From the IMG/VR virus record IMGVR_UViG_2778261673_000009: a stretch of 23,750 nt of DNA; one strand, written 5' to 3'. A program made the translations under genes and the position numbers. How positions within the stretch are numbered: position 1 is the stretch's first letter; each line of letters starts with the position of its first letter. Origin of the DNA: a virus. Taxonomy: Duplodnaviria > Heunggongvirae > Uroviricota > Caudoviricetes. Below, in pieces: positions 981-17,775 of this stretch. The notes beneath the pieces are model-generated. The model was given only the letters and a program-made list of their open reading frames with translations. It searched no databases and was not told the origin of the DNA.

Positions 981-987
981 CAGGGAT

Positions 988-1012
988 GAAAAAAGACCGG
1001 CAGATGCCGGTC
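988..1012 (-). terminator. Rho-independent terminator downstream of alpha
   Basis: Perfect hairpin GACCGGC-AGAT-GCCGGTC (995-1012) followed on the minus strand by a run of six T (plus-strand A run 989-994), 17 nt after the alpha stop. Confidence 0.6.
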
Positions 1013-1028
1013 AGATGAGTCATGAGGG

Positions 1029-3362
1029 TCAGGTTGTTGCAGGGTCGTCACATTTTGGCAGCCAGTCGCCGTAGCTTTCCTCTTTCAGCGTCAGGTTGGT
1101 CTGTATCCCCTGTTTGGTATGGCGCTTCTCGTAATTCAGTCCGTATTCCTTCAGCATCACCGGCAGCCCCAGCCCGAACATTTTCAGACTGAGTACATTC
1201 CGGTAGCCGTTTGCCTCCATGTAGGCCAGATAGGCGTGATAGAGGTATTTACGGTAATTGCGCGGGATGATACTGGCGTTCCCCATATACATGCCGCTGG
1301 TCTGCGGCAGGGTTTCCAGATAGCCGATAAAATCAAACGTCGGGTCGGCATCCCGTTTGATGTTCAGCGCCTCGTCTGAGTTCTGCTGGGACTGAAGCAG
1401 TGACCGGGCGAGCATCGGGTCGCTGAACTTCTGCATCAGGTGACGCACGATGACCGCCAGCTCGCGGGTGATTTTGTCCTTGAGCTGCGGGTCGCGCTCC
1501 TGCGGGGCTATCTGTTCCGGGAAGTGAATAATCACCCGCCGGCGTGACACGCCGCCGCTGCGGTCGGTGAAGCGCATCGGGTTATTGTTCACGGCCAGAA
1601 TCACCGCCGGGATATGCGTGGAGTACGCATCCCGGTATTTCGGGTCAACGGACACCGCATCGCCGCCGGTGATGGCCTTGAGTCCGGCTCCGTCGCCGCT
1701 CCATTTTTCCTGGTCCGGCAGGCGTATCAGTGAGAAGCCAGTTAACGCGGCACGTTCACGCGGGGATTCCAGCGTCTCAATGGTGGCCGACGTGGCGTTA
1801 TCCTCCCCGGCCAGCAGGGTGGCTATTTCGGCCATGATACTTTTGCCGCTGCCGCCGGGACCGGTCACCTCCAGAAAGAGCTGCCAGTCGTAGCGGTTTG
1901 CCAGCACCATAAACAGTGCGGCCAGAATTACGTCGCGTTTTTCCGCACGACCACCGGCAGCACGGTCAAGCCAGCGCCAGAACGCGGGGGCGTGGGTTTC
2001 CAGCGTTTCCCCTTCCACCGGCGGGGTGAAATCCACATCGCACAGGGTGCGCATCCAGTGTGACGGACTGTGCGGGTGGAACGTGCCGTTCTGCGTGTCG
2101 AGCACGCCGTTACGAAAGCCAATCAGGCGGCGGGAGGGGGCTTCCTGCTGCGGAATAATCAGCTTCAGGGTGTCCACCACGGAGGCCACCTTCCCGGAGG
2201 AGAACGGCGCACGCAGCCGCTGAAACAGCCCGGCCACATCCCGGGCAAAGTCCTGTGGTGGCAGCACCTTCCAGACACCATTTTCATAACGGGACAGAAG
2301 CTGGCCGTTGGCATCGACCGCGAGCGCCTCGCCGTAATGCTCATAGATACGCATGGCCTTTTCGCTGGTACTCATGGCGGAAAACTCTGCTTCGCTCATG
2401 GTGTCGAACGGGCTTTCAGCCGGTGGCCGGATGGCATCGTAAATGGCCTTACGGGTGGCCTCCCCGCCGTACTGCGTGAAGGCATCATTCCAGTCACCGA
2501 AGACCGGCGGCAGGGCAACAACGCCCTCACACGCATCTGCGGCTGCGGCGGCTTTTTTCTGGCCGTCACCGCTGAGGTCACGGTCTGCGGCAAGGACAAT
2601 CTGACAGGCCGGATGCTTCTGCCGGGCAAGGCTGGCCAGAGAAAGGAGGTTCACGGAAGAAAGCGCCACCATCACCGTTTCACCGGTCAGGTGATGTACG
2701 GTAAGTGCGGTTGCGTATCCCTCCGCTATCCACAGACGTTTTCCGGCCTGATTCTGTCCTTCAAGGGTGTGACAGGTGCCCCTGACCTGTCCGCCTTTCA
2801 GGGTGCGCTTACGGCCGTCAGCACTGATTAACTGAAGGTTAACCAGTTCGCCGCTGTCGTCATACAGTGGCACCACAAGGTCACCGGCGCGCCAGCTCAC
2901 GCCACCGGCTCTGTGTGTGCCGGTCAGCATCCGGCATTCCCGGCCGGGAAAGCCCTTGCGGGTCAGGTAGGCGTTACCGGTTCCGGGACGGGTTTTTGCC
3001 ATCAGGGTTTGTGCCAGTGCGGCGGCGTTCTTCCGGGCGGCTTCTGTTTCAGCAACGGCGGCGGCCGTCACTGCCGGGTCAGCCGGGGGCAGACTGCCGG
3101 TCACGGCAGCCACCTTTGTGGCCGCGTCGGACGGGGAAACACCAAACACCTTTTCAACCAGTTTCAGGCCGTCACCGGCACCACACTGATTGCAGTACCA
3201 GGTGCCGCGCCCCTCCCTGTCATCAAAACGGAAGCGGTCACTCCCGCCACAGACCGGACAGGGCTGATGACGGTTCTTCAGCACCTGAATCCCCAGCGCC
3301 GGGAGAATACGCGGCCAGTGGCCGAGCGCATGGCTGACGGTGGCGGTTACGTTCATTTTCAT
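1029..3362 (-). CDS. alpha: P4 alpha-type replication protein (primase-helicase)
   Basis: 777-aa ORF, the same length as P4 alpha. N-terminal Cys-rich zinc-binding primase segment (CPVCGG...YCNQCG), flanked by both TGTTCACC iteron clusters. Plus-strand ORFs inside it are treated as antisense artefacts. Confidence 0.9.
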   Translation of the reverse strand: MKMNVTATVSHALGHWPRILPALGIQVLKNRHQPCPVCGGSDRFRFDDREGRGTWYCNQCGAGDGLKLVEKVFGVSPSDAATKVAAVTGSLPPADPAVTAAAVAETEAARKNAAALAQTLMAKTRPGTGNAYLTRKGFPGRECRMLTGTHRAGGVSWRAGDLVVPLYDDSGELVNLQLISADGRKRTLKGGQVRGTCHTLEGQNQAGKRLWIAEGYATALTVHHLTGETVMVALSSVNLLSLASLARQKHPACQIVLAADRDLSGDGQKKAAAAADACEGVVALPPVFGDWNDAFTQYGGEATRKAIYDAIRPPAESPFDTMSEAEFSAMSTSEKAMRIYEHYGEALAVDANGQLLSRYENGVWKVLPPQDFARDVAGLFQRLRAPFSSGKVASVVDTLKLIIPQQEAPSRRLIGFRNGVLDTQNGTFHPHSPSHWMRTLCDVDFTPPVEGETLETHAPAFWRWLDRAAGGRAEKRDVILAALFMVLANRYDWQLFLEVTGPGGSGKSIMAEIATLLAGEDNATSATIETLESPRERAALTGFSLIRLPDQEKWSGDGAGLKAITGGDAVSVDPKYRDAYSTHIPAVILAVNNNPMRFTDRSGGVSRRRVIIHFPEQIAPQERDPQLKDKITRELAVIVRHLMQKFSDPMLARSLLQSQQNSDEALNIKRDADPTFDFIGYLETLPQTSGMYMGNASIIPRNYRKYLYHAYLAYMEANGYRNVLSLKMFGLGLPVMLKEYGLNYEKRHTKQGIQTNLTLKEESYGDWLPKCDDPATT

Positions 3363-3376
3363 GGTGTTGTTCTCCT

Positions 3377-3697
3377 TCAGTGCAGTACCGGCGCTTTTAT
3401 GTGACGGGCACAGAGTTCATCCATCACAACCAGCCCGAGAAAGGACAGCGACGGCGCGGCCTTCAGGGGGCCGGATTCCATTAAATCTTCCAGCAGGGCA
3501 CAGGCTATCTGACGCCCTTTTTCCTCACCGTGCTGGCGCAGATAAAAGCCTTCCAGCTCAGCGGCGATGGCCGCCTCCAGTGACTCAAGGGTGAGATGCG
3601 GGTAGCGGTGCTGACGTTCGCACACGGTCAGCCAGGCACAGGCGACAGCGCGACGGTAAAGGGCAGCGCGTAAGACGGGCGGTAAGGGTGTTTTCAT
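3377..3697 (-). CDS. P4 orf106-like protein
   Basis: 106-aa ORF immediately upstream of alpha, matching the P4 orf106 position and length. Confidence 0.6.
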
Positions 3698-3832
3698 TTG
3701 CTTTCCTCCCTGTGACAGATGACTGCATTCCGTGCCGGTTGCATTAACTGATAAGGCATATCTGCGTCTCCTGAAGACGTGCGTATCCCTGCGCGAATAC
3801 GCACATTTAATTTTTCGGGTGTCGTTTTTTAA

Positions 3833-4288
3833 TTACAGATAATTGCGGTAACTGTTATCCGGGGTGGTTTCCGGGTCAGGCTCCGTGCGGGGAATTTCCC
3901 GCCATTCCCGCGCCACCGGTGCTGCCCGGCTGACCGGAACAGTGTCCTGCGGGTAAATATCCAGATATTTTTCCCGCCATTTCTGTAATTCCGGGTCTCC
4001 GGCCATTTCTTTCAGTACCGCATGCCGGTTTACGGGGCTGCGTTTAAACAGGTCAGGACGGTCACAGGTAAATTCCCGCAGAAAACGCCCCAGCGGGATG
4101 TCTGTGGTGCGTCCGTCAGCGAGGATACGCACAAGGATACTGAATTTACGGCGGTACGGGTTCCAGACAATGTCCGGGCAGCGGTACGGCATTTCCCACG
4201 GAATACCGTCTTCCAGAATGCCGACCACGGCCACATCGGGAAAACCGGCAGAACGGTAAATCTCACCGGGCTGGGGAAAATCAAACAT
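3833..4288 (-). CDS. P4 orf151-like protein
   Basis: 151-aa ORF in the P4 orf151 position, co-directional with alpha. Confidence 0.6.
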   Translation of the reverse strand: MFDFPQPGEIYRSAGFPDVAVVGILEDGIPWEMPYRCPDIVWNPYRRKFSILVRILADGRTTDIPLGRFLREFTCDRPDLFKRSPVNRHAVLKEMAGDPELQKWREKYLDIYPQDTVPVSRAAPVAREWREIPRTEPDPETTPDNSYRNYL

Positions 4289-4568
4289 GCGTCCTGTCTC
4301 CCCGGTCTTTCTGCTGGGCGAGAAAATCGCGGCACAGGCCTTTGGCTTTCAGCTCATTCAGCACAAAATCAATATCTTCATTCAGGTAGCTGAAAATATG
4401 CGGAATGTAGAGCTGATGCAGGCCGGAGAGTTCACGGTGAATCAAATCACCCCCAACAAACCGGGATACGGCGCTGGCGCGGTTGAGCTTATGGTAAGCC
4501 TCAATGCTGAGGTGTTCACGGGCGTCATGACGCGCTGAGACGGTCTGAGGGGCTTTTTTATTACGCAC
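4281..4568 (-). CDS. Epsilon-like small protein (95 aa, GTG start) in the P4 left operon
   Basis: The 190-aa ORF in the track has no credible start. An in-frame GTG at 4568 is preceded by GGAGG with a 6-nt spacer and gives a 95-aa product overlapping the orf151 start. The name is by synteny only. Confidence 0.4.
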
Positions 4569-4758
4569 GGGACACCTCCACCACCGGCAGACGGGCAGCA
4601 AGGGAGAGCACATAGTCACGGACAAGGGAACGGCGGGCGCTGCGTTCATCACCGGCGACGGTGCGAAGCATACAGATACGGGGATGACGGTCTGCGCGAC
4701 GGACAGCCGCAAACACAAAGACAAATTCAGGGTGTGAGGGGGTAAGGGTTGTAGCCAT
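4561..4758 (-). CDS. Small left-operon protein, 65 aa (kil-like position)
   Basis: ATG at 4758 preceded by AGGAGG (about 8-nt spacer). It is the 3' part of a longer track ORF with no credible upstream start. It ends 4 nt before the epsilon-like GTG. Confidence 0.4.
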
Positions 4759-5156
4759 GATGGCAGCCTCCTGTGAATAGCAAATAACGCTATCGCCGGA
4801 GTTCTCACGCTCGATGGCGATAGCCCAGACGGGGGTGAGAATACCGGCTTCACAGGATACCGGCCAGCCCGGAGGCTGCCCCGCCTGAGCTACCATTGAC
4901 TCTGCGGCATAATGAGCGGACGCGGGCAGGATGCACGGAATGCCATCTGCACGACTGACCACACACCACACCATAATCTGGCGCTCTGTGGCATTGATTG
5001 CGACACAAAAAAAGACGCGTGGCGCGTCATATGTCGCCTGTGAATTGCTCGGGTTCTCACGCCCGGCTGCCGATTTTGCGGCAGCGGAAAAACTATATCC
5101 GCAAATGCCGGAAAAAGGCAAGCCAGAAAAAGGGAGTTTTTGCAGAGCGGGCATCA

Positions 5157-5423
5157 TCATGCGTCGTACCCCCGTTTGCGTCCGGCAATGCGCCCGGCCA
5201 TCCATGCGGTGACTTCAGAGTGCAGCCAGGCCACATTTTTACCGCCAAGACTCACCTGCGGCGGAAATTCCCCCTTACGGATGAGTTCATAGATGGTCGA
5301 GCGTGACAGGCCGCACAGGTGCATCACTTCCGGAAGACGTAAAAAACGCTCCTGTGTGATGTCCGGCAGCGGCATCAGTGGCGTCACAGGGGCGGGAGAC
5401 GGGGAAGAAAAAACAGCTTGCAT
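5157..5423 (-). CDS. vis: AlpA/Vis-family DNA-binding regulator (88 aa)
   Basis: 88 aa with an AlpA-type helix-turn-helix ([28 protein letters not shown]). Matches the length and position of P4 orf88/vis, the first gene read leftward from the late-left promoter region. Confidence 0.8.
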
Positions 5424-5525
5424 CGGGCTACCTCGTTAATGTCCATACAGCACCGGATAAGTCCGTCCGGCTTCGGGTAGCGTTTTATTTTGTGAATATT
5501 TTCAGCAGACGCAACAGGGGGGATT

Positions 5526-5543
5526 TGTTCCGGCAGCCTTACA
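5526..5543 (-). promoter_or_regulatory. TGT-N12-ACA dyad (Delta/Ogr-type activator site), late-left promoter-like
   Basis: TGTTCCGGCAGCCTTACA, centred about 110 bp upstream of the vis start. This is the dyad typical of P2/P4 late promoters. Confidence 0.4.
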
Positions 5544-5567
5544 ATGCTTGTGTGTTTTTTGTTCATC

Positions 5568-5606
5568 TCCACTTAAAGTCATTTAAAGCCACTTAAAGCA
5601 ATTCGT
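5568..5606. repeat. Three tandem copies of CACTTAAAG-like motif
   Basis: CCACTTAAAGT CATTTAAAG CCACTTAAAG, read directly, between the late-left dyad and the iteron cluster. Confidence 0.4.
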
Positions 5607-5694
5607 AATTTTTATAGTGAAATACAAATCGTTTTTTCTTATTCATTCCCGGCGAATTAATAAAAACAAACAGTAATAAACAGCACAAAAAGCC

Positions 5695-5820
5695 CATCAA
5701 CGGGTGAACAGTGGTGAACAGACGGTGAACAGTCATTACTTCGATTGTTCACCCTTTAACTTACTGTATTACTTATCTTTTTTCTTATGGTGAACAGAGG
5801 TGAACAGAGGTGAACAGTAA
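5695..5820. repeat. ori-like iteron cluster: seven GGTGAACA/TGTTCACC octamers
   Basis: GGTGAACA at 5703, 5713, 5724, 5789, 5799 and 5809, with an inverted TGTTCACC at 5746. It lies about 4.8 kb from the crr-like repeats, comparable to the P4 ori1-crr spacing. Confidence 0.7.
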
Positions 5821-5895
5821 AATATAAAAAAACAAACAGTAAGCCGGTTTTTCCTGCGACCTTTTCCTGGCTTGCCGGTCTGAGGATGAGTCTCC

Positions 5896-5913
5896 TGTGT
5901 CAGGGCTGGCACA
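5896..5913 (+). promoter_or_regulatory. TGT-N12-ACA dyad, Psid-like late promoter activator site
   Basis: TGTGTCAGGGCTGGCACA, centred about 80 bp upstream of the sid ATG. Confidence 0.45.
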
Positions 5914-5985
5914 TCTGCAATGCGTCGTGTTGTTGTCCGGTGTACGTCACAATTTTCTCAACCTGAAGTGACGAGGAGCCGGAAA

Positions 5986-6720
5986 ATGTCTGACAACACC
6001 ATCCCTGAATATCTGCAACCCGCGCTGGCACAACTGGAAAAGGCCAGAGCCGCCCATCTTGAGAACGCCCGCCTGATGGATGAGACCGTCACGGCCATTG
6101 AACGGGCAGAGCAGGAAAAAAATGCGCTGGCGCAGGCCGACGGAAACGACGCTGACGACTGGCGCACGGCCTTTCGTGCAGCCGGTGGTGTCCTGAGCGA
6201 CGAGCTGAAACAGCGCCACATTGAGCGCGTGGCACGCCGGGAGCTGGTACAGGAATATGACAATCTGGCCGTGGTGCTGAATTTTGAACGTGAACGCCTG
6301 AAAGGGGCGTGTGACAGCACGGCCACCGCCTACCGGAAGGCACATCATCACCTTCTGAGTCTGTATGCAGAGCATGAGCTGGAACACGCCCTGAATGAAA
6401 CCTGTGAGGTGCTTGTCCGGGCAATGCATCTGAGTATCCTGGTACAGGAAAATCCGCTCGCCAACACCACCGGCCATCAGGGCTACGTCGCACCGGAAAA
6501 GGCTGTCATGCAGCAGGTGAAATCATCGCTGGAACAGAAAATTAAACAGATGCAAATCAGCCTCACCGGCGAGCCGGTTCTCCGGCTGACCGGACTGTCA
6601 GCGGCAACACTCCCGCACATGGATTATGAGGTGGCAGGCACACCGGCACAGCGCAAGGTGTGGCAGGACAAAATAGACCAGCAGGGTGCAGAGCTTAAGG
6701 CCAGAGGACTGCTGTCATGA
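5986..6720 (+). CDS. sid: Sid capsid size-determination (external scaffold) protein
   Basis: Taking the ATG at 5986 (GAGGAG 7 nt upstream) gives 244 aa starting MSDNTIPEYLQPALAQLEK, matching P4 Sid in length and N-terminus. Track ORFs antisense to it are rejected. Confidence 0.85.
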   Translation: MSDNTIPEYLQPALAQLEKARAAHLENARLMDETVTAIERAEQEKNALAQADGNDADDWRTAFRAAGGVLSDELKQRHIERVARRELVQEYDNLAVVLNFERERLKGACDSTATAYRKAHHHLLSLYAEHELEHALNETCEVLVRAMHLSILVQENPLANTTGHQGYVAPEKAVMQQVKSSLEQKIKQMQISLTGEPVLRLTGLSAATLPHMDYEVAGTPAQRKVWQDKIDQQGAELKARGLLS

Positions 6721-7217
6721 TTTACTGCCCGTCGTGTGGACATGTTGCTCACACCCGCCGCGCACATTTCATGGACGATGGCACCAAGATAATGATTGCA
6801 CAGTGCCGGAATATTTATTGCTCTGCGACATTTGAAGCGAGTGAAAGCTTTTTCTCTGACAGTAAAGATTCAGGAATGGAATACATTTCAGGCAAACAGA
6901 GATACCGCGATTCACTGACGTCAGCCTCCGGCAGTATGAAACGCCCGAAAAGAATGCTTGTTACCGGATATTGTTGTCGGAGATGTAAAGGCCTTGCACT
7001 GTCAAGAACATCGAGGCGTCTGTCTCAGGAAGTCACCGAGCGTTTTTATGTGTGCACGGATCCGGGCTGTGGTCTGGTGTTTAAAACGCTTCAGACCATC
7101 AACCGTTTCATTGTCCGCCCGGTCACGCCGGACGAACTGGCAGAAAGCCTGCATGAAAAACAGGAACTGCCGCCAGTACGGTTAAAAACACAATCATATT
7201 CGCTGCGTCTGGAATGA
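6717..7217 (+). CDS. delta: Delta late-gene transcriptional activator (duplicated Ogr-like zinc finger)
   Basis: 166 aa, as P4 Delta, with two Cys-rich Ogr-like halves (CPSCGH...C....C and CCRRC...C.DPGC). ATGA overlap with the sid stop. Confidence 0.85.
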   Translation: MIYCPSCGHVAHTRRAHFMDDGTKIMIAQCRNIYCSATFEASESFFSDSKDSGMEYISGKQRYRDSLTSASGSMKRPKRMLVTGYCCRRCKGLALSRTSRRLSQEVTERFYVCTDPGCGLVFKTLQTINRFIVRPVTPDELAESLHEKQELPPVRLKTQSYSLRLE

Positions 7218-7290
7218 GGGCTGCCGGTTAACCCCGGCCGTCGCCGCACACCGTATTTTTATTCTTCAGCATGATGAGAAAGAGATAACG

Positions 7291-7863
7291 ATGGAAAGCA
7301 CAGCCTTACAGCAGGCCTTTGACACCTGTCAGAATAACAAAGCAGCATGGCTGCAACGCAAAAATGAGCTGGCAGCGGCCGAACAGGAATACCTGCGGCT
7401 TCTGTCAGGAGAAGGCAGAAACGTCAGTCGCCTGGACGAATTACGCAATATTATTGAAGTCAGAAAATGGCAGGTGAATCAGGCCGCCGGTCGTTATATT
7501 CGTTCGCATGAAGCCGTTCAGCACATCAGCATCCGCGACCGGCTGAATGATTTTATGCAGCAGCACGGCACAGCACTGGCGGCGGCACTGGCACCGGGGC
7601 TGATGGGCTACAGTGAGCTGACGGCCATTGCCCGAAACTGTGCCATACAGCGTGCCACAGATGCCCTGCGTGAAGCCCTTCTGTCCTGGCTTGCGAAGGG
7701 GGAAAAAATTAATTATTCCGCACAGGATAGCGACATTTTAACGGCCATCGGATTCAGGCCTGACGCGGCTTCGGTGGATGACAGCCGTGAAAAATTCACT
7801 CCTGCGCAGAACATGATTTTTTCGCGTAAAAGTGCGCAACTGGCATCACATCAGTCTGTGTAA
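7291..7863 (+). CDS. psu: Psu polarity-suppression / capsid-decoration protein
   Basis: 190 aa, as P4 Psu, and the last gene of the sid-delta-psu operon. Confidence 0.85.
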   Translation: MESTALQQAFDTCQNNKAAWLQRKNELAAAEQEYLRLLSGEGRNVSRLDELRNIIEVRKWQVNQAAGRYIRSHEAVQHISIRDRLNDFMQQHGTALAAALAPGLMGYSELTAIARNCAIQRATDALREALLSWLAKGEKINYSAQDSDILTAIGFRPDAASVDDSREKFTPAQNMIFSRKSAQLASHQSV

Positions 7864-7898
7864 AACTCCCCGAAAATCCGCCCGTTTTTACTGAAAAA

Positions 7899-7940
7899 AG
7901 CCATGCATCGATAAGGTGCATGGCTTTGCATGCGTTTTCC
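7899..7940 (+). terminator. Terminator-like hairpin after psu
   Basis: Perfect 9-bp stem AGCCATGCA / TGCATGGCT (7899-7907 and 7917-7925) with a 9-nt loop, followed by TTGCATGCGTTTTCC. The T tract is imperfect. Confidence 0.45.
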
Positions 7941-8027
7941 TGCCTCATTTTCTGCAAACCGCGCCATTCCCGGCGCGGTCTGAGCGCGTCAGTACAACTG
8001 CATTAAAACCGCCCCGCAAAGCGGGCG

Positions 8028-8046
8028 GGCGTGGCGGGGGGAGCAT
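8028..8046. other. cos-like cohesive-end site
   Basis: GGCGTGGCGGGGGGAGCAT matches the P2/P4 19-nt cohesive end (GGCGAGGCGGGGAAAGCAC, recalled from memory) at 15/19 positions. It lies about 165 bp past psu, as in P4, next to a GC-rich inverted repeat (CCGCCCCGC/GCGGGCGG). Confidence 0.55.
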
Positions 8047-8129
8047 TGCGCGCTAAGGCTGATATTATAATTTTCTTTAATTCTATTTGGTATTTTGGCT
8101 TTATTCGTCAGAAGGAACTTTTAGAAATA

Positions 8130-8157
8130 GACCACTACAATGGATTGTAGCGGTCTG
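8130..8157 (-). terminator. Inverted-repeat hairpin downstream of the cargo operon
   Basis: AGACCACTACAAT-GG-ATTGTAGCGGTCT (12/13-bp stem), 9 nt after the partner gene stop. The following minus-strand tract ATTTCTAAAAG is only weakly U-rich. Confidence 0.3.
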
Positions 8158-8165
8158 CATGATAT

Positions 8166-8906
8166 CTAGCGTTGCATTTCAGTTACTATGAAATTTTCTT
8201 CTGTAATAGAATTCATTATCTCAAAGTACAATTCTTCAGGTTGAATAAACGCCAACTCTTTGCAAAGGTTGACAATGGTATCACTATAAGTGATACCCAT
8301 CCGAGGATTGAAAAGCTCAAATCTCTTGATGTTTCTTTTGTTTTTTGAGTAAAAGTTTAAAGTGAAATATATTAGCACCTGTCTAAGATCGTAAACACTA
8401 AACTTCCTATCTCCTGATTTTATTTCCACAAGAACATTTGAATAATAAATATCGCCATATGAATTATTTATTACTCCGCATCCATCGAATTGTGGAGACA
8501 CTTCAATTTGGTTTTCCATTCCATATCGAGACAAAATGTTTCTTGCTATTTCCCTTATGGCATTGTACTCAACCATGCTTAAGGGTAGCTTGAAGTTAGA
8601 ACCGTAAGCGAACCGCTGTAGATATTCTTTTGTTTTTTCAAAAACAACCTGAAAATCAGCATTATGGAAGATATCATGTGCTGAAAGAATATTTCTGTCT
8701 AACGAATCATTCTGTATTGCCCTATATAAATTAAATGCGCACTCATTGACAAAGACGTTATTTGACCTATTAGCGCAGTCATCTAGAGGAGGATAAACGT
8801 CCTCGATGAGACTGCCGTTAATGATGCGTATGAAATTATTAGCATTTGGAAGCAATTGATTCCAAAATGAAGTGAATTTTCGAGAAAACGTTAATTCAGA
8901 TATCAT
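8166..8906 (-). CDS. Hypothetical 246-aa protein, partner of the reverse-transcriptase gene; possible PD-(D/E)xK-type nuclease
   Basis: AT-rich ORF whose ATG overlaps the RT stop (ATGA). It contains GDIYYSNVLVEIKSG, that is D-x9-E-x-K. The nuclease reading is motif-level inference only. Confidence 0.6.
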   Translation of the reverse strand: MISELTFSRKFTSFWNQLLPNANNFIRIINGSLIEDVYPPLDDCANRSNNVFVNECAFNLYRAIQNDSLDRNILSAHDIFHNADFQVVFEKTKEYLQRFAYGSNFKLPLSMVEYNAIREIARNILSRYGMENQIEVSPQFDGCGVINNSYGDIYYSNVLVEIKSGDRKFSVYDLRQVLIYFTLNFYSKNKRNIKRFELFNPRMGITYSDTIVNLCKELAFIQPEELYFEIMNSITEENFIVTEMQR

Positions 8907-10531
8907 AGCGCATCCTCAAGATTTCTTGCGGTATGCCTTTTACTTGCCCAATCCCTGTAAATCACCTCTACAAAGTTGAATGTTTTCTTATTATGCTCTC
9001 TCCAGTGCCGTCCTTCATCACCTAAGATGTAACTGGAAACGATCAATAGTCTTCTCTGCAACGGATGCATTGCAGAGAAATTTTTTTTGATATCAGAAAG
9101 CCATGCGTAAGAATTAATTTTTGCCATTGACTGTGTAACTATGTTCTTGACTAAGATGCTTTCTGGATTGTTATTGTATATTTCACTAAGGATTAGGGTG
9201 GATTTTTCTGAATTTTCTTTTGAGAGCATTCGGGCTACATAGGCTAAGTTGAGCTCAGTACTCAAAATATATGAATCTTGTTTAATTAGTGCAGTTATTT
9301 TATCAAGAATAATATCTTTGGTTTCTGTGCTTAATTTTTGCCAGTTGGAGTTAGCTACTTGAATTATAGTTGTAAATATTGGATATAACTCATGCAAGTT
9401 ATTAAACATTACTTTGAAAGCACTACTTATTATTTCATCTGATGTTGCTGAGAATGCCTTTATCAAATGCTTGCTAAAAGATTGGTTAATTTTTGATTTT
9501 TGTAACTCACTACTCAGCATAGCTAACAAGTCAAAATCTTTTAAAGATTCCTTTATCTCTTCATATTCCTCTATCGCATTTGCTGAGTAAGGATCGAATC
9601 TTATAGGAAGACTCATAAATTTAGCCTTCATAGGAGATTCTTCATCTTCATCATTACCATGCAACTTAGCTTTAGTTACTGAAAGGAACTCTTCTTTAGT
9701 AACAATATTGGTTTTTTGTTTCTGTAAAGTTAGCCCTTCATTTTCCATCAGTTTTTTACTAAGCAAAGTTAAAATCTTATGAGCATCCTCTCTAGAGTTA
9801 CAAAAAATAACAAAGTCGTCGACATAACGCTTATAGTTGATTCTATTCATAGACAATAATTTATCAATAGAATCTAGAGCTAGTTCTGCTAATATTCTAG
9901 AGGCAGGACATCCAACTGGTACTCCATATGATTTTGTTTCACTAAATGTCTGTAGTAATTTCTTGATTTTCCCAGAGTAATCTTTATTGGGGTCTACTCT
10001 ATCTAACGCATTTTCTAAACGGTGGTGATAAATACGCGGATAGAAATCTGCTATATCGCATGTAAGTACATACTTTATTTCATCGTTAGAACATTCAGAG
10101 ATACTGTCTTCTTGATATTTTCTCCAAGAGATCTCTTTATCAAAAAGAGAACCATCAGCAAGGTTTGGTTTAAAGCGATATGAATAAACCTGCGTTTTAG
10201 TAGATCTATTCCTTTCAATATCATCAGCGATTTTTAAAACTAACCCAAGAAAAAAAGCATTCCAGAATGGATCAATTTGGGTCGCCCACCTGTAACCATA
10301 ATAACCAATACTTGAAAAGCTATTAATTATGTTTGGTGGAATCTCGATCCTTTTATTTTCAAAGTCATTAAATGTTTGCATTAATGCAGTTTTTACTTTC
10401 TCCTTATCATCTTCAAATAACCGACTTTCAAATGGGTAAGGGAAAATATCTGTATCGCCGTGCTTTATAATATTTTCCAATGCAAGCTCAAAGCAATTTT
10501 CTAGTTTACTACTATCAAACTCGTTACTCAT
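8903..10531 (-). CDS. Reverse-transcriptase-domain protein with a long alpha-helical C-terminal extension (Abi/DRT-like architecture)
   Basis: 542 aa with RT motifs read directly: CDIADFYPRIYHHRL (motif A-like), YGVPVGCPASRILAELAL (motif B-like) and YKRYVDDFVIF (YxDD catalytic motif, encoded near 9811-9822). About 250 C-terminal residues lie beyond the RT core. Strongly AT-rich relative to its neighbours. Confidence 0.85.
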   Translation of the reverse strand: MSNEFDSSKLENCFELALENIIKHGDTDIFPYPFESRLFEDDKEKVKTALMQTFNDFENKRIEIPPNIINSFSSIGYYGYRWATQIDPFWNAFFLGLVLKIADDIERNRSTKTQVYSYRFKPNLADGSLFDKEISWRKYQEDSISECSNDEIKYVLTCDIADFYPRIYHHRLENALDRVDPNKDYSGKIKKLLQTFSETKSYGVPVGCPASRILAELALDSIDKLLSMNRINYKRYVDDFVIFCNSREDAHKILTLLSKKLMENEGLTLQKQKTNIVTKEEFLSVTKAKLHGNDEDEESPMKAKFMSLPIRFDPYSANAIEEYEEIKESLKDFDLLAMLSSELQKSKINQSFSKHLIKAFSATSDEIISSAFKVMFNNLHELYPIFTTIIQVANSNWQKLSTETKDIILDKITALIKQDSYILSTELNLAYVARMLSKENSEKSTLILSEIYNNNPESILVKNIVTQSMAKINSYAWLSDIKKNFSAMHPLQRRLLIVSSYILGDEGRHWREHNKKTFNFVEVIYRDWASKRHTARNLEDAL

Positions 10532-11708
10532 TCACATTCTCCTTAATAAAAATATAATCTGAATACCACTGCATCATATCACGGCGTTTATCAATATATT
10601 GAGCATGATTATACGTACCTCTAATATTATTCTTATCTATATGAGCAAGCTGTATTTCTATCCAAGCCGAATCATATCCTTTTTCGTGGAGGATAGTAGA
10701 TAAGGAATGTCGAAATCCATGACCAGTAAGTTTTCCACCATAACCAATACGCTTGATAACTTGGTTAATACTCGCCTCACTCATAGGCTTGTTCGGATCG
10801 TTCCGCCCCGGAAAAACATAACTATACTTCCCTGTCATCATCTTGAGTTCATTTAGCAAATCTAACGCTTGAGTCGACAAAGGCACAAGGTGTGATCTGC
10901 GCATTTTCATCCTTTCAGCAGGAATTTCCCAAATAGCGTTATCTAAATCAAATTCTGACCATAATGCCGCACGTAATTCGATGGTTCTAACACCTGTAAT
11001 CATGAGCAATTTCGTGGCAATCAGGACAAGCCGACTTCCGGTATATCCGTTTAAGGCGCGAAGAAAATCAGGTATCTCATTAGCCTTTAAGAACGGGAAA
11101 TGATTTGATTGGTGTACATTGAGGGCGCTTGAAAGATCCGCAGCAGGGTTAAACTCAGCCCTTCCAGTAGCAATGGCATAGCGGAAAACTTCTGAGCATC
11201 GCTGCCGAACTTTGCGCATTTTTTCTAATGCACCGCGCTTTTCGATTTTACGCAGCACATTAAGCAGTTCTAGCGGTTTAATCTCTCCCACTGGCCTTGT
11301 TCCCACATAAGGAAAAATGTCGTTCTTAAACGCTTCCATGATGTCTGATGCATATCCCGCCGACCATTTGGTAGACTTCTGTTGATGCCACTCTCTGGCT
11401 ATCTTTTCGAAGGCGTTCTCTGACTCTGTTTGCAGAGCCAGCTTTTGCTCTTTTCGAACCTCACTAGGGTTCTTTCCTTCTGCCACAAGTTTTCGAGCTT
11501 CATCACGACGGGAACGAGCATCAGCAAGAGTGATCGTTGGGTAAACACCAAGCGAGATCATTTTGGGTTTACCGGCATAGCGATAACGAAATCGCCAGCT
11601 TTTACTTCCATTTGGCTCTACAAGTAAAGACAACCCTTGCCCATCCCCAAGTGTATAGGCTTTAGCTTCAGGTTTAGCACGGCGAATCTGCATATCATTT
11701 AGGGGCAT
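10524..11708 (-). CDS. int: P4-family tyrosine integrase
   Basis: 394 aa with a typical P4-type integrase N-terminus (AKPEAKAYTLGDGQGLSLLVEPNGSKSWRFRYRY) and a C-terminal catalytic region (HGFRHSLSTIL...). It is adjacent to the putative att core. The true start may be the second Met, 15 nt downstream. Confidence 0.9.
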   Translation of the reverse strand: MPLNDMQIRRAKPEAKAYTLGDGQGLSLLVEPNGSKSWRFRYRYAGKPKMISLGVYPTITLADARSRRDEARKLVAEGKNPSEVRKEQKLALQTESENAFEKIAREWHQQKSTKWSAGYASDIMEAFKNDIFPYVGTRPVGEIKPLELLNVLRKIEKRGALEKMRKVRQRCSEVFRYAIATGRAEFNPAADLSSALNVHQSNHFPFLKANEIPDFLRALNGYTGSRLVLIATKLLMITGVRTIELRAALWSEFDLDNAIWEIPAERMKMRRSHLVPLSTQALDLLNELKMMTGKYSYVFPGRNDPNKPMSEASINQVIKRIGYGGKLTGHGFRHSLSTILHEKGYDSAWIEIQLAHIDKNNIRGTYNHAQYIDKRRDMMQWYSDYIFIKENVNE

Positions 11709-11872
11709 GTGTATAGAATTCCAAAATCGAACAGGAACATATACATAATCCTATACACATTTAGTACTGGATTCTACTGGAAAGTTATGGACTAATACGA
11801 ACAGTAAAAACAAAAAATCTTTTATAAAACAGTGCGGTTATGGATAAATACGGATGTTTGAAGAAGTGGAGA

Positions 11873-11890
11873 TGGTGCCGATAATAGGAG
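11873..11890. repeat. Putative attachment-site core, junction copy next to int (ATGGTGCCGATAATAGGA)
   Basis: Direct repeat of 546-563, about 165 bp upstream of the int start. The nearby sequence carries TATACACA-type motifs (11712-11760), also seen inside the other end (620-641), as expected for integrase arm sites. Confidence 0.45.
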
Positions 11891-12033
11891 TAAAACACTC
11901 GATTAATCTCGTGTTAATGCCATCACCTACGACTATTACTAATTGATTGAATCTTATAGAAAAATAATCATTTTCTATGCGTCACAATCAATTTTCACAT
12001 TACAAACGCTCCGACACTTTAGCCGGAGATTTT

Positions 12034-13311
12034 ATGAGATACAAGCCTAACCAATACTTAATCTGTGATTCTTACGGTAACTACTATTTAAGGATCACGC
12101 TGCCTGTGTATATGCAGCCCTTTTTTGAAGGAAAAAGGACGTTTGTCAGAAGTCTACACACAAGTAATCTTCGTGTTGCACGTAGAAAGCGTGATCAGAT
12201 TGCAGATGAATACCATTGCTTACGGGAGAGTGTTGCCCCTGTAAACAGCACAATAGAAAACACGCTGGAACTGTTACGCAGTAAGGCTAAATACGCCAAA
12301 ACAGCTACCAGAGTGCAAGATACAGCGTCTTCGTGTCCGTCATTGCTTAAAATTCTTGAAATCTACCTGACAATTAACAGCACGAAGAAGAAGCCAGCCA
12401 CTTTAGCTAAGGCAAGAAAAGCGGTAGAGATGTTTCTCTCCTACCGTAAAAAGCCTGATATTGCATTGCAAGATGTAAGCCGCACCACTGTTACAGGCTG
12501 GATTGAACACATGCAAAAAACTCTTTCACAACAATCAATTGCAAATTATATCAGCCCAATGGCCCAGCTATGGGAGTTAGCTTCATCACGTTACCACGAT
12601 GCGCCAGAAAGGGCGCTCTCCCCCTGGCGAGGGCATAGGCTTGATGTGGCACAAAGTAGAGAGAGCTACGAGGCATTTTCTAACAAAGAGCTATTGCAGG
12701 TGTTGCAAGTATTTTCCGGTAATTCAGCAGAAAACAAAGAAATGACGGCTTTGTGTCTTATCGGTTTATATACAGGTATGCGGATCAATGAGATAGCAAG
12801 TCTCACAATAGACGATGTGAAAGAGATCGAAGGTGTGCTGTGTTTTGAAATCACACAGGGAAAGACGAAAGCAGCGGCACGTGTTGTGCCTGTACATAGC
12901 CTTATCACTCCGTTGGTGTTGTCGCTGCGTGAAAAGCCTCACAATGGCTTTTTGTTCTATCACGCCAGCATTACAGAGCGTGCTGATGGTAAACGTTCCA
13001 CGTGGCATACGCAGAGATTTACAAGAGCTAAACGAAAGGCTTTAGGGGAAAAGGGAACAGAAAGGAAGGTGTTTCATTCTCTGAGACACGGAGTAGCACA
13101 GCTTCTTGATCGAAATCAAATTCCAGAAGACAGGATCGCCCTTCTCCTGGGCCATACACGCGGCAATACAGAAACATTCCGCACATATAGCAAAAATGCA
13201 GCTTCTCCAGTAGAGCTTAAAAAATATATTGAGCTTTTACGCTACCCTGAAATAGAGAAAGGCTTATCAATCAATAAAAAATCAAATTTAAGGCGTAAAA
13301 CAACGCCATAG
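12034..13311 (+). CDS. Tyrosine recombinase / phage-type integrase of a second element
   Basis: Catalytic motifs visible: TGMRINEI, HSLRHGVAQLL and LLGHTRGNTETFRTYS. The track's longest ORF begins at 11977, but the ATG at 12034 has a GGAG Shine-Dalgarno 6 nt upstream and is preferred. Confidence 0.8.
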   Translation: MRYKPNQYLICDSYGNYYLRITLPVYMQPFFEGKRTFVRSLHTSNLRVARRKRDQIADEYHCLRESVAPVNSTIENTLELLRSKAKYAKTATRVQDTASSCPSLLKILEIYLTINSTKKKPATLAKARKAVEMFLSYRKKPDIALQDVSRTTVTGWIEHMQKTLSQQSIANYISPMAQLWELASSRYHDAPERALSPWRGHRLDVAQSRESYEAFSNKELLQVLQVFSGNSAENKEMTALCLIGLYTGMRINEIASLTIDDVKEIEGVLCFEITQGKTKAAARVVPVHSLITPLVLSLREKPHNGFLFYHASITERADGKRSTWHTQRFTRAKRKALGEKGTERKVFHSLRHGVAQLLDRNQIPEDRIALLLGHTRGNTETFRTYSKNAASPVELKKYIELLRYPEIEKGLSINKKSNLRRKTTP

Positions 13312-13392
13312 ACGTAATAAGGAGGCTTCAACATAGATTGGTAGCCTCTTTTATAATTACATCGTTACAGAGCGTTTCATAGGCGTTTAAGG

Positions 13393-14070
13393 CTATTGTT
13401 TAAATACTGGTGTTACAACGTCTTGCCCTGGGCTTTTTTGATTTTTCTGTTCTGTTGTATTTACCTGCATTTTAACCTGTCCCCCTACAGATTTATTTGG
13501 TGCTGTTTTTACAGCAATAGCATTAGTGGTGGCCTTAGAGACAAGACGAATTTGCTCAAAATCAAGAGTAAACAATATGCTTTCGCTTGCTTCTTCTTCG
13601 TAAGACATGCCAACTAACACAACGTTGTCATAATTTTTTAACTCAGTGACAAGTAGGAAAGGTTGGCGACTGTCCATCAACTGATTTAGGTATTCAAGCA
13701 TAAGCATACGTCGATTGCCGTTAATTCCAGCATTCTTAATCATATCAGGATTGAGCTTCAATACGGTTTCAGAGATACGCCCTTGTAATGTGAACTTGTT
13801 ATTCCGTATTTGAACATGATCACTAACTTCTGATCCTGATTCGACAGCATAGCTTGTAACGTCTGCATTTCTGCTAACTCTCGTCGATTCCACGCTATCA
13901 AATGATAATGCCTGGTAGTCATTGTAAGCAGCATTTGCACCACTGCCGAGATTAGAGGTAATGATCGCAAAGCCGTTACCCCCTTTAGTTGTTCTACCGT
14001 TGCTATCGTTGCTTGTGCTGTTGATTTTCGCCTCAGTCGGGCGACCAATGGTTAACGGACCCATTGCCAT
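13393..14070 (-). CDS. Hypothetical 225-aa protein, last gene of the structural-type operon
   Basis: ORF with AAGGA about 9 nt upstream of the ATG, co-directional with the upstream genes. No recognisable motif. Confidence 0.55.
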   Translation of the reverse strand: MAMGPLTIGRPTEAKINSTSNDSNGRTTKGGNGFAIITSNLGSGANAAYNDYQALSFDSVESTRVSRNADVTSYAVESGSEVSDHVQIRNNKFTLQGRISETVLKLNPDMIKNAGINGNRRMLMLEYLNQLMDSRQPFLLVTELKNYDNVVLVGMSYEEEASESILFTLDFEQIRLVSKATTNAIAVKTAPNKSVGGQVKMQVNTTEQKNQKSPGQDVVTPVFKQ

Positions 14071-14117
14071 AATTTGTAATCCTTATTTAAGGGGGCTAAA
14101 CAGCCCCACAGTGATGA

Positions 14118-15959
14118 TTAATAGGTTGACCCGCCTGACATAACACCCAGCGTTAATAGCTTGCTAAACTCAGCGGAGGATGCCTTTGATTTGAAGTCGA
14201 TAAATTCGCTCAATCGTCCGGTGTCTGATTCGATAGTTAGCGGCACTTCTGCATTTACTTGTAATTCTGGATTGAAGTTAATAACAGGTGCAAAGGTGTA
14301 AGAAGGAGCCTTGAAAGCTTGTTGTGCTGCACTCTGTTTCAGATTTGCAATGTTTTGTCCTTCGAGACTGTATTGATTTACAGCCTGCGCCCCACCTACC
14401 GTTTCTTCTGGCATAAACCAGCTTTTAATAGTGTTAACCAGGGAATTGCTGTTATCTGGCTTAGTTGTTCCGGTGCCAGCGCCTTTATATTGATCAGGAG
14501 TGAGATTAGAAAGATTCTGCTTCATTCCTTCGTTAGATAGTGGCGGTGCATCACCTAAATTCTTCTGAATAGCTGCCGTCTTCTCGTCGTTTTTCATCAG
14601 CCAGTTGATTGTTTTCATTACGGCGTTAACCAATCCGCCGATAGCCTCGCCTAATTTGGTAAACATTGGCAGCATTGCAACCATGCTCTTTTTAAACTCT
14701 TCAATCACTTTCGGATCAAGAGATTTCATAAAGCCATCAACAAAGGCGATCCCTTGTGAGTCAGAAAGCCCACTAAGTGCATTATTCAGTTCACGGAATT
14801 TAATAACGCTTTCCTGTTGTGCCTGTGTTACCCAGCGCCCTGATTCTCGTTGTTCTCGTGCTGATTGTTCCACTTCTTTAGCGGAGCGTGTCCAGTATTT
14901 AGAGGTGAGCATCAAATCATCAGCCAGATCTTCCAGACGACTACCGATTTGTGCATCTGAATAGCCTTTAGCTACCATTCCCTGAACTGCTTTACTAACC
15001 AGACCAGCCGGATTATCAGCAAAGTCTTTTAGATCCTTTTTAGTTAGGAATCCTTCATTCATTAAAGTATTGATGCCGCTATCGCCGCCCTTCCATTCGC
15101 CTTTCCCTGTTTTCTTATCGACTACATATTCAGCCTCATCATAGCTTTTGGTTGCACGCTCACGCACATCTTTCATCTGATCGAGATACTTACGTTTACC
15201 TTGATCCCCCATCATTGAATCAACGCCGTTTTTATACGCCCATTGCTCAATATTGTTCATCTGGTTAACGTCTACACCGCCCAGCTTCGCACGGCTATAC
15301 AATTCTCCCAGCGTTTCAGCACTGGCAAAGCTGTTAGTAACAAATTCAGAGGCTTTGCTCATAGCCATATACGTAGCGCCAGCGCCTAAGCCACCCAGCA
15401 TAACAGCCGCAGCACCGCCGCCAATACTCCCGCTACCCTTAACAGGTGCATAGGCTTTAGCGTGAGCGTTACGATTGCCATTAATCTTACGTTGTTGCTG
15501 TTGTAGGCGTTTCATTTGGCTATTCATACGTGCCAGACTAATAGCGCCTCTTTCATATTGGAGGGCAATTTCTCTAGCCTGTGCAATAGCTTTATATTGT
15601 TCCGCTACAGAAAGACGGTGCATTGCACTAATGCTTGATCCAACGTCTAAAAGCTTTAAGTCTGCCTTCTCTTTGCGTGCTGCCAGGGCTTTTTGTTCTC
15701 TTGCAACTACACGTTGAGCGGCTAATTGTGCTTTAGCATTAGCTTTATCAGCCTGTGCTTGCTTTTTAGCAATATCGTCTACGTCTTTTTTTGCTTTAGC
15801 GGTTGATTGTTTATGTGTCTTAACACGCAATTCTATATCTTTCACAGCCGCCATTTGTTTACGAAGTTTTTCTACTTCTGCTTTTGCTTTCTCTAATGAT
15901 GGTCGATCAACCTGGAAGGTGACAACGTTTGATAAGCGGCTGACGGTAAGGTCTAACAT
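14118..15959 (-). CDS. 613-aa protein with N-terminal coiled-coil region and Gly-rich hydrophobic segment (tape-measure-, ejection- or scaffold-like)
   Basis: The N-terminal 150 aa are rich in K/A/E/Q heptad-like sequence, followed by GSGSIGGGAAAVMLGGLGAGATYMAM and then a long polar region. The functional class is inferred from composition only. Confidence 0.65.
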   Translation of the reverse strand: MLDLTVSRLSNVVTFQVDRPSLEKAKAEVEKLRKQMAAVKDIELRVKTHKQSTAKAKKDVDDIAKKQAQADKANAKAQLAAQRVVAREQKALAARKEKADLKLLDVGSSISAMHRLSVAEQYKAIAQAREIALQYERGAISLARMNSQMKRLQQQQRKINGNRNAHAKAYAPVKGSGSIGGGAAAVMLGGLGAGATYMAMSKASEFVTNSFASAETLGELYSRAKLGGVDVNQMNNIEQWAYKNGVDSMMGDQGKRKYLDQMKDVRERATKSYDEAEYVVDKKTGKGEWKGGDSGINTLMNEGFLTKKDLKDFADNPAGLVSKAVQGMVAKGYSDAQIGSRLEDLADDLMLTSKYWTRSAKEVEQSAREQRESGRWVTQAQQESVIKFRELNNALSGLSDSQGIAFVDGFMKSLDPKVIEEFKKSMVAMLPMFTKLGEAIGGLVNAVMKTINWLMKNDEKTAAIQKNLGDAPPLSNEGMKQNLSNLTPDQYKGAGTGTTKPDNSNSLVNTIKSWFMPEETVGGAQAVNQYSLEGQNIANLKQSAAQQAFKAPSYTFAPVINFNPELQVNAEVPLTIESDTGRLSEFIDFKSKASSAEFSKLLTLGVMSGGSTY

Positions 15960-15993
15960 ACTGATTGTTTCCCTGTATTATGATTGTTGTTTG

Positions 15994-16191
15994 TTATTGT
16001 TTTTTAGAACAATAATATTGGATTGCTTCGAAAGTGCTGCACCCGGTCTGAAACACACGCTGCCGCACATTATTTGCATCAATTGAAAGCATTCTGCATA
16101 AGGCACTGACATTGATTATTGAGTCATCGCTAATAGCTGCCAGTTCTTTTACAGATTTAAGAATTAATGCCTGTGAATTTTCTGTGTTCAT
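15994..16191 (-). CDS. Small hypothetical protein (65 aa)
   Basis: ORF with a weak ribosome-binding site between the capsid-like gene and the 613-aa gene. Confidence 0.3.
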   Translation of the reverse strand: MNTENSQALILKSVKELAAISDDSIINVSALCRMLSIDANNVRQRVFQTGCSTFEAIQYYCSKKQ

Positions 16192-16355
16192 TGGTTTTCT
16201 CTCACATATATATTTTTATTTGGATTTGTAGACAGTAGAAAAACAAAAAGGGCAAAGAGATTCGTTACTGTATTTGCGCCTACAGGTTAGTTAATCTCCT
16301 TACCCTTATTGCCCCCCGATTATTTCCAGACGTAGGGGAACGTCTTTAACACTTT

Positions 16356-17384
16356 TTACGCTACTGTGATCTGCACAGAGAAGCCAACACCGTGGTTAAC
16401 CACAAGCGAGCTATTCTCGGTCACTACGTGCACTGCGTCGCCGCGATTCGATTCGAAAGCATAGCTGTAATACTCTTTAGCGCCTTGAGACAGCAGATCG
16501 AAGGAACTGGAAGGCGCGCCATAGATAGCTTGGTAAACACCTCCACCCTTAGCGAATTTAGGCACGGCTACAGCGTCAGCGGTCATATGTGCCAGCAGCA
16601 GCGGATCAGTCACTTTGATCAGATCAATGTTAGTTCCTGGAATGGTGAAAGTAGTTACGCCAGGCAGCAGAGAACGCACATTAAACACCACGTTTGCATC
16701 GTCTACAGGGCTTGCATATTGGAACGCATTGACCATGCCAACGCTGTAACGAATAGCGTTGAATGCCGCAGGTTTACAGAACACAACAACACGCTCAATG
16801 GTTGCAGCCTGGCTTTGTGCCTTAGCAATCATATCCGTATGCATCTGATCAAATTGCTTGAATACGGTCATTGTGTTGGTGCTGGATGCGTCAACGGTTG
16901 CAGTCATTGGAGACACACCGAACAGAGTGCTGTAATCGATCAGAACATCGTCAGTTTTCGGCGTATGTGTCTTGCCAGAGAACAGAGAAGCCGCGAGGAT
17001 GCTTTCTTTAGTGCGCTGGAATGCAACATTGTGTTTAGCGATATATTCCGCATACAGATCCGGCAGTGTTTCTTCAATAGAGCTTCCGGCTTTGCGTTTG
17101 CCTTGCACGTCCTGCGGTTTGATCAGGTCTTCACGCAGGAAGTAAGGGATTTCAATCAGCCATTCTTCCCCGTTCTCACGCTTAGTAACGTTATGCTCAG
17201 AGCTAAAACGGCTTGTAGGATGGTTGAACAGAGATTCATTGCTCTCGATAAGCTGGGAAACAGCCACTTTGTGACTTTCTACAGGCACAGGATCAGTAAA
17301 ATCCAGAGTAGACAGTAGGTAATTGCGTGAGTCGTTTAATTCGAACAGTGGAGCAAGATCAACCACTTCATTTCCGATAATCAT
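16356..17384 (-). CDS. Putative major capsid protein, lambda gpE-like
   Basis: 342 aa, essentially the length of lambda E-family capsid proteins. C-terminus ...GFSVQITVA resembles the E-family C-terminal motif as recalled. Preceded by a 124-aa gene, like the lambda D-E pair. GAAGGA lies 10 nt upstream of the ATG. Confidence 0.5.
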   Translation of the reverse strand: MIIGNEVVDLAPLFELNDSRNYLLSTLDFTDPVPVESHKVAVSQLIESNESLFNHPTSRFSSEHNVTKRENGEEWLIEIPYFLREDLIKPQDVQGKRKAGSSIEETLPDLYAEYIAKHNVAFQRTKESILAASLFSGKTHTPKTDDVLIDYSTLFGVSPMTATVDASSTNTMTVFKQFDQMHTDMIAKAQSQAATIERVVVFCKPAAFNAIRYSVGMVNAFQYASPVDDANVVFNVRSLLPGVTTFTIPGTNIDLIKVTDPLLLAHMTADAVAVPKFAKGGGVYQAIYGAPSSSFDLLSQGAKEYYSYAFESNRGDAVHVVTENSSLVVNHGVGFSVQITVA

Positions 17385-17400
17385 TATTATTTATTCCTTC

Positions 17401-17775
17401 TTAAGATGTGAAAACAGAGTGGAAGCCTTCAAGCTGGAAGCCTTTAGCAGCGAGAGCTGCAATAGCAGCTTCTTTTACAGCGCCTTCGGCATTCAGGGCA
17501 TCAGCTTTGATGCAAACGAGTCCGGCATTAGCACGAAGCACGTTAACTGTTTTATTTGAATCAGCAGTTACGAAGTCAGACACAACGACAAGAACATCAG
17601 CGCCGCTAACATATTTAGCGCCGGATGAATCAATGAGGTCGCCGCACGTTACATCTTGTGCAAGTGCTGCAAATTTTTTGCTTTCTACAGCCGCGTAAGG
17701 GTCGGTTGCATAGCTCACTACGTCAGTGATGCTTTTACGATGTGGGAAAACATCGCTTAATTTTAAAATAGCCAT
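17401..17775 (-). CDS. Putative head-decoration-like protein (124 aa)
   Basis: Small Ala/Val/Gly-rich protein immediately upstream of the capsid-like gene. Strong AAGGA ribosome-binding site. Start overlaps the stop of the upstream gene (TAATG). Function assigned by position and size only. Confidence 0.4.
   Translation of the reverse strand: MAILKLSDVFPHRKSITDVVSYATDPYAAVESKKFAALAQDVTCGDLIDSSGAKYVSGADVLVVVSDFVTADSNKTVNVLRANAGLVCIKADALNAEGAVKEAAIAALAAKGFQLEGFHSVFTS

Follow-up and report, generated by a model that had tools for sequence, protein, structure and literature searches.

A reverse transcriptase and nuclease gene pair assigned to DRT type 8, carried in the hotspot between cos and int of a P4-like satellite

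IMG/VR virus record IMGVR_UViG_2778261673_000009 is a stretch of 23,750 nucleotides (referred to as a whole as the window) that carries, at positions 8166-10531, a reverse transcriptase (RT) gene followed by a smaller open reading frame (ORF). A preliminary description, made from the sequence alone, regarded the two genes as a candidate anti-phage system and left their family undecided. The locus therefore raises the question of what system this pair represents and how the two proteins might act together. Our results indicate, with high confidence, that the locus is DRT type 8 (DRT8), a UG7 RT with a PD-(D/E)XK nuclease, present as cos-int hotspot cargo of a P4-like satellite at thrW in Escherichia coli. 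The features of the pair are as follows.

8903-10531, minus strand: drt8 RT gene (UG7, class 1 UG/Abi) of 542 amino acids, from the ORF list; fingers and palm at residues ~1-290, a flexible linker at ~293-318 and an alpha-helical repeat domain at 319-541
9815-9826, minus strand: YVDD catalytic box of the RT (Y236-D239), from the translation
9584-9595, minus strand: invariant DPYS motif of the RT (D313-S316), from the translation and the homologue alignment
8166-8906, minus strand: RT-associated PD-(D/E)XK nuclease gene of 246 amino acids, with a predicted RecB/Cas4/MGME1-like fold
8367-8453, minus strand: nuclease active-site motifs D152...E161-x-K163...Q176-x-x-x-Y180, from the translation DIYYSNVLVEIKSGDRKFSVYDLRQVLIY
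8903-8906, minus strand: ATGA in which the RT stop and the nuclease start overlap, from the sequence

Both proteins matched family models over nearly their full length. The RT matched the PADLOC model Drt8 (PDLC03783) with an E-value of 4.9e-166 and 551.9 bits, residues 11-532 aligning with positions 4-492 of the 493-position profile, and the next-best PADLOC RT model reached 127.9 bits. The partner matched RTasPDDEXK (PDLC03797; E-value 5.5e-69, 230 bits), with residues 1-239 on positions 1-224 of 226. Pfam recognized RVT_1 at RT residues 144-282 (E-value 1.2e-18) and returned no match in the C-terminal half of the RT or in the partner, and the ~220-250 residues that follow the RT core are predicted to be entirely helical. 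The features by which DRT8 membership can be recognized in silico are all present: the UG7 profile match, an adjacent PD-(D/E)XK partner with its catalytic residues, and the class 1 UG/Abi architecture. The catalytic residues of the RT and of the nuclease are all intact in this copy. At the junction, which reads GCGCTATGATATCT, the TGA stop of the RT gene and the ATG of the nuclease gene share 4 nt.

The two genes also stay together elsewhere. An RT followed by a partner of ~240 residues was found in Pseudoalteromonas, Oceanimonas, Thalassospira and two metagenomic contigs, with different neighbouring genes each time, and the identical 4-nt overlap of RT and partner recurred in five distant loci (L003-L007). 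Because the hidden Markov model E-values are so low (4.9e-166 and 5.5e-69) and the gene pair is kept in distant bacteria, chance can be excluded. A DRT8 variant was seen in locus L006 (positions 967-4397 of ENA metagenome contig k141_168680), in which an RT of 896 residues, 56% identical to the one described here, carries an N-terminal Pkinase domain in addition to RVT_1. The nuclease partner of this variant (43% identical) comes next with a 4-nt overlap, and a P4-type integrase in the same orientation lies upstream.

These matches support what the preliminary description had claimed for the two genes. Its 542-residue RT ORF with a YVDD box and about 250 C-terminal residues of no obvious motif is consistent with the ORF, the RVT_1 match and the helical C-terminus that Pfam leaves unmatched, and the ATGA overlap with a 246-residue ORF can be read directly from the junction. 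Its proposal that the RT is of the Abi/DRT/UG kind and serves in defence, and that the partner is an effector, agrees with the Drt8 and RTasPDDEXK matches and with the predicted class 1 fold. Profile searches, which it had named as a way to place the proteins, settle the family as DRT type 8, and the structure prediction and fold comparison that it had also proposed returned a class 1 UG/Abi RT and a RecB-like nuclease. Its own refuting condition, as far as novelty is concerned, applies: the pair is confidently placed in a described family in which the partner is already explained.

UG7 with a PD-(D/E)XK partner (cluster 17) was defined as DRT type 8 by Mestre et al. 2022 (NAR, PMC9226505), who reported robust protection of E. 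coli against T5 that was abolished by mutation of the active site of either the RT or the nuclease, and who also noted UG7 in P4 hotspots. The exact two proteins of the present pair (WP_000064054 and WP_000622599) are listed in Table S1B of Rousset et al. 2022 (PMC9122126) as P4-hotspot system #2, with the annotation UG7 and a count of 294 loci; the pair is absent from the table of tested systems in that paper. Both genes are 100% identical to those of E. coli strain 2013C-4974, and a search of 5426 complete E. coli genomes found the DNA of the pair in 107, in each case chromosomal. Phage resistance, demonstrated for a UG7 system, would be attributed to this copy by family resemblance. The family and this exact allele in this hotspot are already known, and the locus is no addition to the catalogue; among the cargoes of P4-like satellites in E. 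coli, this exact gene pair ranks second by frequency.

Conservation of the RT was assessed in 49 homologues with 44-100% identity. Residues D159 and D162 of motif A, V237, D238 and D239 of the YVDD box, and K273 are invariant, as are three further motifs, namely an N-terminal GDTDIFP, YRWATQIDPxWN, and DPYS (313-316). The AlphaFold model of the RT (predicted local distance difference test score, pLDDT, 88.5; predicted template modelling score, pTM, 0.88) consists of the RT core followed by thirteen helices (319-541) and is disordered only at residues 293-298 and 314-318, the second of which (pLDDT < 50) holds the invariant Y315. The predicted fold is that of the class 1 UG/Abi enzymes (DRT4, AbiA, Abi-P2 and AbiK), with no thumb and a C-terminal helical-repeat domain. 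The class 1 enzymes AbiK, AbiA, Abi-P2, DRT4, DRT6 and DRT7 carry out protein-primed, template-independent synthesis of single-stranded DNA (ssDNA), and their priming residue lies in a flexible loop whose position varies by family; in AbiA it is Tyr298, in the flexible linker between the RT and helical domains (PMC11077055). Because the DPYS loop is both invariant and disordered, Y315 is the best candidate for the priming residue by analogy, an assignment for and against which we find the case evenly balanced. Alternatively, S316 or Y118 may serve. The primer position of DRT4, Tyr125, was also considered and could not be transferred, as the alignment begins at DRT4 residue 141 and no invariant DRT8 tyrosine is found just upstream of motif A.

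Across 46 homologues, the partner keeps D152, E161, K163, Q176 and Y180 invariant, within motifs of the form GD..ExK..QxxxY, and the structural model predicts a RecB/Cas4/MGME1-like nuclease. A sequence search of the PDB with the nuclease gave nothing significant. A fold search returned MGME1, Dna2, AdnAB, Exo5, RecE and Cas4 as the nearest folds, which are exonucleases of ssDNA ends rather than endonucleases of the restriction type; ACE1 is also counted among the closest RecB-family/Cas4-like nucleases. Two stretches outside the classical PD-(D/E)XK motifs, the N-terminal MISE (residues 1-4) and NPRMG (200-204), are invariant across the same homologues, which are otherwise 33-89% identical; E4 may provide the first acidic residue of a RecB-type site.

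The pair is cargo carried between psu/cos and int of a P4-like satellite. Window positions 1007-8027 are 98.5% identical to positions 4613-11624 of phage P4, a segment that spans the genes from alpha to psu, sid and delta included, and reaches the right cohesive end, and sid, delta and psu (the last at 7291-7863) lie on the cos side of the RT-nuclease pair. An Rfam gathering scan of the whole window placed the P4 immunity RNAs C4, isrK and c4-a1b1 at 4813-5098. Together with the adjoining P4-type integrase, the identity to P4 upholds the earlier placement in the psu/cos-int hotspot of such a satellite. The remark that both genes are AT-rich against the backbone also holds, the GC content being 0.332 in the RT gene and 0.340 in the partner versus 0.561 in the adjoining P4-identical arm. 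The features that flank the pair and delimit the satellite are listed next.

7990-8053, no strand: cos region of the satellite; P4 position 11624 (right end) corresponds to window position 8027
~8054-10600, no strand: variable hotspot cassette of ~2.55 kb with a GC content of 0.333, delimited by the ends of similarity and by GC content
8131-8156, minus strand: inverted repeat GACCGCTACAA...TTGTAGTGGTC directly past the nuclease stop, with a weak T tail, from the sequence
10524-10526, minus strand: int stop codon TAA, inside RT codons 2-3, from the sequence
10524-11708, minus strand: P4-type tyrosine integrase of 394 amino acids, upstream of the RT and in the same orientation, with Arm-DNA-bind_3, Phage_int_M and Phage_integrase domains
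10539-10544, minus strand: AAGGAG Shine-Dalgarno sequence of the RT gene, within the last int codons and 7 nt ahead of the RT ATG, from the sequence
11872-11891, no strand: int-proximal attachment site (att), which repeats the 19 nt at the 3' end of tRNA-Thr (thrW), by comparison with the tRNA-Thr of locus L001

With a degenerate second att copy at ~537-556, the satellite comes to ~11.35 kb and matches P4 in size. The edges of the cassette were placed where similarity to other elements ends. On the cos side, neither P4 nor other satellites show similarity beyond ~8054, just past cos, as judged from the end of the P4 match at 8027 and a by-eye comparison with the P4 cos-proximal sequence of Rousset Table S2A. 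On the int side, related integrases with other cargo diverge at query positions 294-304 of window 10300-11300, which sets the edge at ~10593-10603, inside int and just after the conserved RGTYNHAQY codons. Because similarity among the integrases ends inside int, every cargo supplies the last ~23 int codons itself, in this cassette together with the ribosome-binding site of the RT. The location of this ribosome-binding site in the int tail (10524-10603) and of the int stop in RT codons 2-3 suggests that int, RT and nuclease are co-expressed.

In a scan for sigma-70-like promoters, the minus strand from 10531 to 11708 gave no match, and promoters were no more numerous than in shuffled controls. 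As there is no minus-strand promoter between int and the RT, read-through from int is the simplest source of transcription, and we infer that the RT-nuclease pair is probably transcribed from the integrase in this way. The best sigma-70-like match of the region, TTCACA-16-TATAAT (11/12) at 10531-10558, is on the plus strand at the RT start and points antisense into int; given the AT-rich DNA, and an overall count no higher than in shuffled controls, it may be due to chance. At the other end of the pair, the hairpin at 8131-8156 is a possible transcription terminator, which a consensus terminator scan did not call.

Two further regions of the window were noted. Between the degenerate att and the alpha primase gene, positions 501-1000 have a GC content of 0.35 and contain repeated GGTGAAGGGTGAACA / TGTTCACACTGTTCACC motifs; these are probably repeats of the P4 crr/ori type, the P4 match covering only window position 1007 onward. 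Beyond the satellite, positions 11977-23750 hold a second integrative element in tandem at thrW, with a GC content of 0.31-0.47. This element encodes a tyrosine integrase (11977-13311, plus strand), a Dit-like tail protein (13393-14070, minus strand), a 613-residue protein without a family (14118-15959, minus strand), a homologue of major capsid protein E (16356-17384, minus strand) and many small ORFs of no recognized identity, and PADLOC gave no matches within it (11977-23750). It may represent a prophage remnant or a satellite that encodes a capsid. E. coli EC12 and other strains have the two elements arranged in tandem in the same way, with an intact tRNA-Thr beyond the second element.

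Some DRTs (DRT2, DRT3 and DRT9) depend on a non-coding RNA, and the comparison with them was made on flanking RNA, using sequence conservation across four divergent loci. No sequence conservation was detected in the 200-nt flanks of these four very divergent loci, either upstream (regions of 120-160 nt) or downstream. At the present locus int overlaps the RT start and there is no upstream intergenic space, and the Rfam scan of the window reported no family near the RT-nuclease genes. The unconserved flanks and the missing intergenic region argue against a non-coding RNA of the DRT2 or DRT9 style, with the limit that only four very divergent loci were compared.

The mechanism that we propose is built largely by analogy with the class 1 enzymes. 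Given the class 1 fold predicted for the RT, and as all studied class 1 enzymes behave in this way, it would most likely synthesize ssDNA without a template, primed on a hydroxyl residue of its own (Y315 being the best candidate), and it would need no non-coding RNA. The ATGA overlap suggests translational coupling, by which the nuclease would be made in a fixed ratio with the RT, and the pair would be transcribed with the satellite integrase. The nuclease would act on DNA with single-stranded ends and would be an effector released on infection, destroying phage and/or host DNA and so causing abortive infection or replication arrest. According to a preprint by Rousset et al. 2023, a PNP-domain ATP nucleosidase in some DRT8 systems 'replaces the usual nuclease effector'. 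Because such an exchange is a trait of abortive-infection effector modules, we lean towards the nuclease being the effector. The state of the RT-linked ssDNA would be the switch, for example by becoming stabilized by a phage protein that binds DNA ends or ssDNA. T5 ORF55 protects the 3' ends of ssDNA and activates DRT4 and DRT6 (PMC12783706, where activation of DRT9 is cited from another study) and would be, by analogy, the obvious candidate for the DRT8 trigger. As a whole, a protein-primed untemplated polymerase (Y315) physically paired with a RecB/MGME1-like nuclease that is licensed by its DNA or processes it, both expressed distally on the int transcript, is a tentative picture that we regard as doubtful in this complete form; polymerase-nuclease coupling of that kind is not yet described in any DRT.

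Other identities for the RT were weighed against DRT8. In a retron, the RT would copy an adjoining msr/msd RNA into multicopy single-stranded DNA that controls an effector, and an RT with a downstream effector-like gene in a P4 hotspot, where retrons do occur, would have this appearance; there is even a weak NCBIfam match to retron_St85_RT. That match amounts to 56.5 bits against a cut-off of 235, the PADLOC retron RT models score far below Drt8, and the 220-residue helical-repeat domain lies outside the retron RT matches, in which ~234-241 residues are aligned. With no intergenic space upstream for msr/msd, unconserved flanks and no Rfam match near the genes, we give a retron practically no weight, as the preliminary description had already concluded. 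An RT of a mobile retroelement, such as a group II intron, unrelated to defence, is just as negligible: the NCBIfam group II intron model scored 78 bits against a cut-off of 300, the likeness is confined to ~250-270 residues of the RT core, Rfam detected no intron RNA, and the two-gene module with the nuclease is kept across unrelated contexts. A neighbouring class 1 family (Abi-P2, AbiK, AbiA or DRT4) would share the overall fold and does score in PADLOC (AbiP2 82 bits, Drt4 88 bits), but the full-length Drt8 match of 552 bits is four to six times that of any other model, the NCBIfam Drt4 score is 76.3 bits against a cut-off of 450, and a PD-(D/E)XK partner is the hallmark of UG7, making this a very improbable alternative. 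With this RT, all NCBIfam models tried, those for retron RT, Drt2-5 and the RT of group II introns, stayed far under their cut-offs.

Within DRT8, the chief rival to an effector nuclease is a processing enzyme that frees protein-linked ssDNA from the priming residue or trims its ends, the DNA itself being the antiviral agent, as has been proposed for DRT4 and DRT9. The best structural matches of the partner, exonucleases of ssDNA ends, are what such a role would call for, and the tight translational coupling of RT and nuclease suggests a complex. DRT4 and DRT6 defend by accumulating ssDNA without a dedicated effector, and as about half of the UG7 RTs lack the nuclease, host nucleases might substitute for it. 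The presence of an ATP nucleosidase in place of the nuclease in some DRT8 loci is hard to reconcile with processing and is typical of interchangeable effectors, and we consider the processing role unlikely. Several points nevertheless weigh against the effector mechanism and the assignments on which it draws. That about one in two UG7 RTs has no linked nuclease, as Mestre et al. 2022 (PMC9226505) report, fits an obligatory dedicated effector less well, and the nearest folds of the partner are equally suited to trimming or releasing the RT product. Y118 and S316 are as invariant as Y315, whose choice as candidate primer is drawn from related enzymes. The UG7 system tested by Mestre et al. may be an allele other than this E. 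coli one. Finally, the searched literature and the PDB contained no biochemical or structural study of DRT8, and the mechanism beyond the two active sites is by analogy.

What remains of interest in DRT8 is its mechanism and not the discovery of the locus. In a 2026 mini-review (PMC13213688), the entry for DRT8 reads 'dedicated mechanism not yet established', and our literature searches for DRT8, DRT type 8 or UG7 found no mechanistic paper. The DRT8 reading outlined above makes testable predictions, namely priming at Y315, a ssDNA nuclease of the RecB/Cas4 type, no requirement for a non-coding RNA, and co-transcription with int.

Compared with known systems, the locus shows no detectable difference from DRT type 8 and P4-hotspot system #2, with which it shares the full-length profile matches, the two-gene architecture, the hotspot and identical proteins. 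The nuclease stands further from its relatives. Its identity to RecB/Cas4-like nucleases is only 7-13%; it lacks a four-cysteine Fe-S cluster signature, having a single near-invariant cysteine (C143), and it has an extra helical N-terminal half and the invariant NPRMG motif. Among the class 1 RTs, DRT4 (UG15) and DRT6 (UG12) are single-gene systems with no dedicated partner, and their similarity to DRT8 is restricted to the RT core (E-values 1e-10 to 1e-15). The priming Tyr125 of DRT4 is in the palm; at the corresponding position, DRT8 lacks an invariant tyrosine. None of AbiA, AbiK and Abi-P2 has a separate RecB-like nuclease, and AbiA carries a fused HEPN domain. By analogy with these enzymes, DRT8 would be the DRT type in which a class 1 untemplated polymerase is paired with a dedicated RecB-like nuclease.

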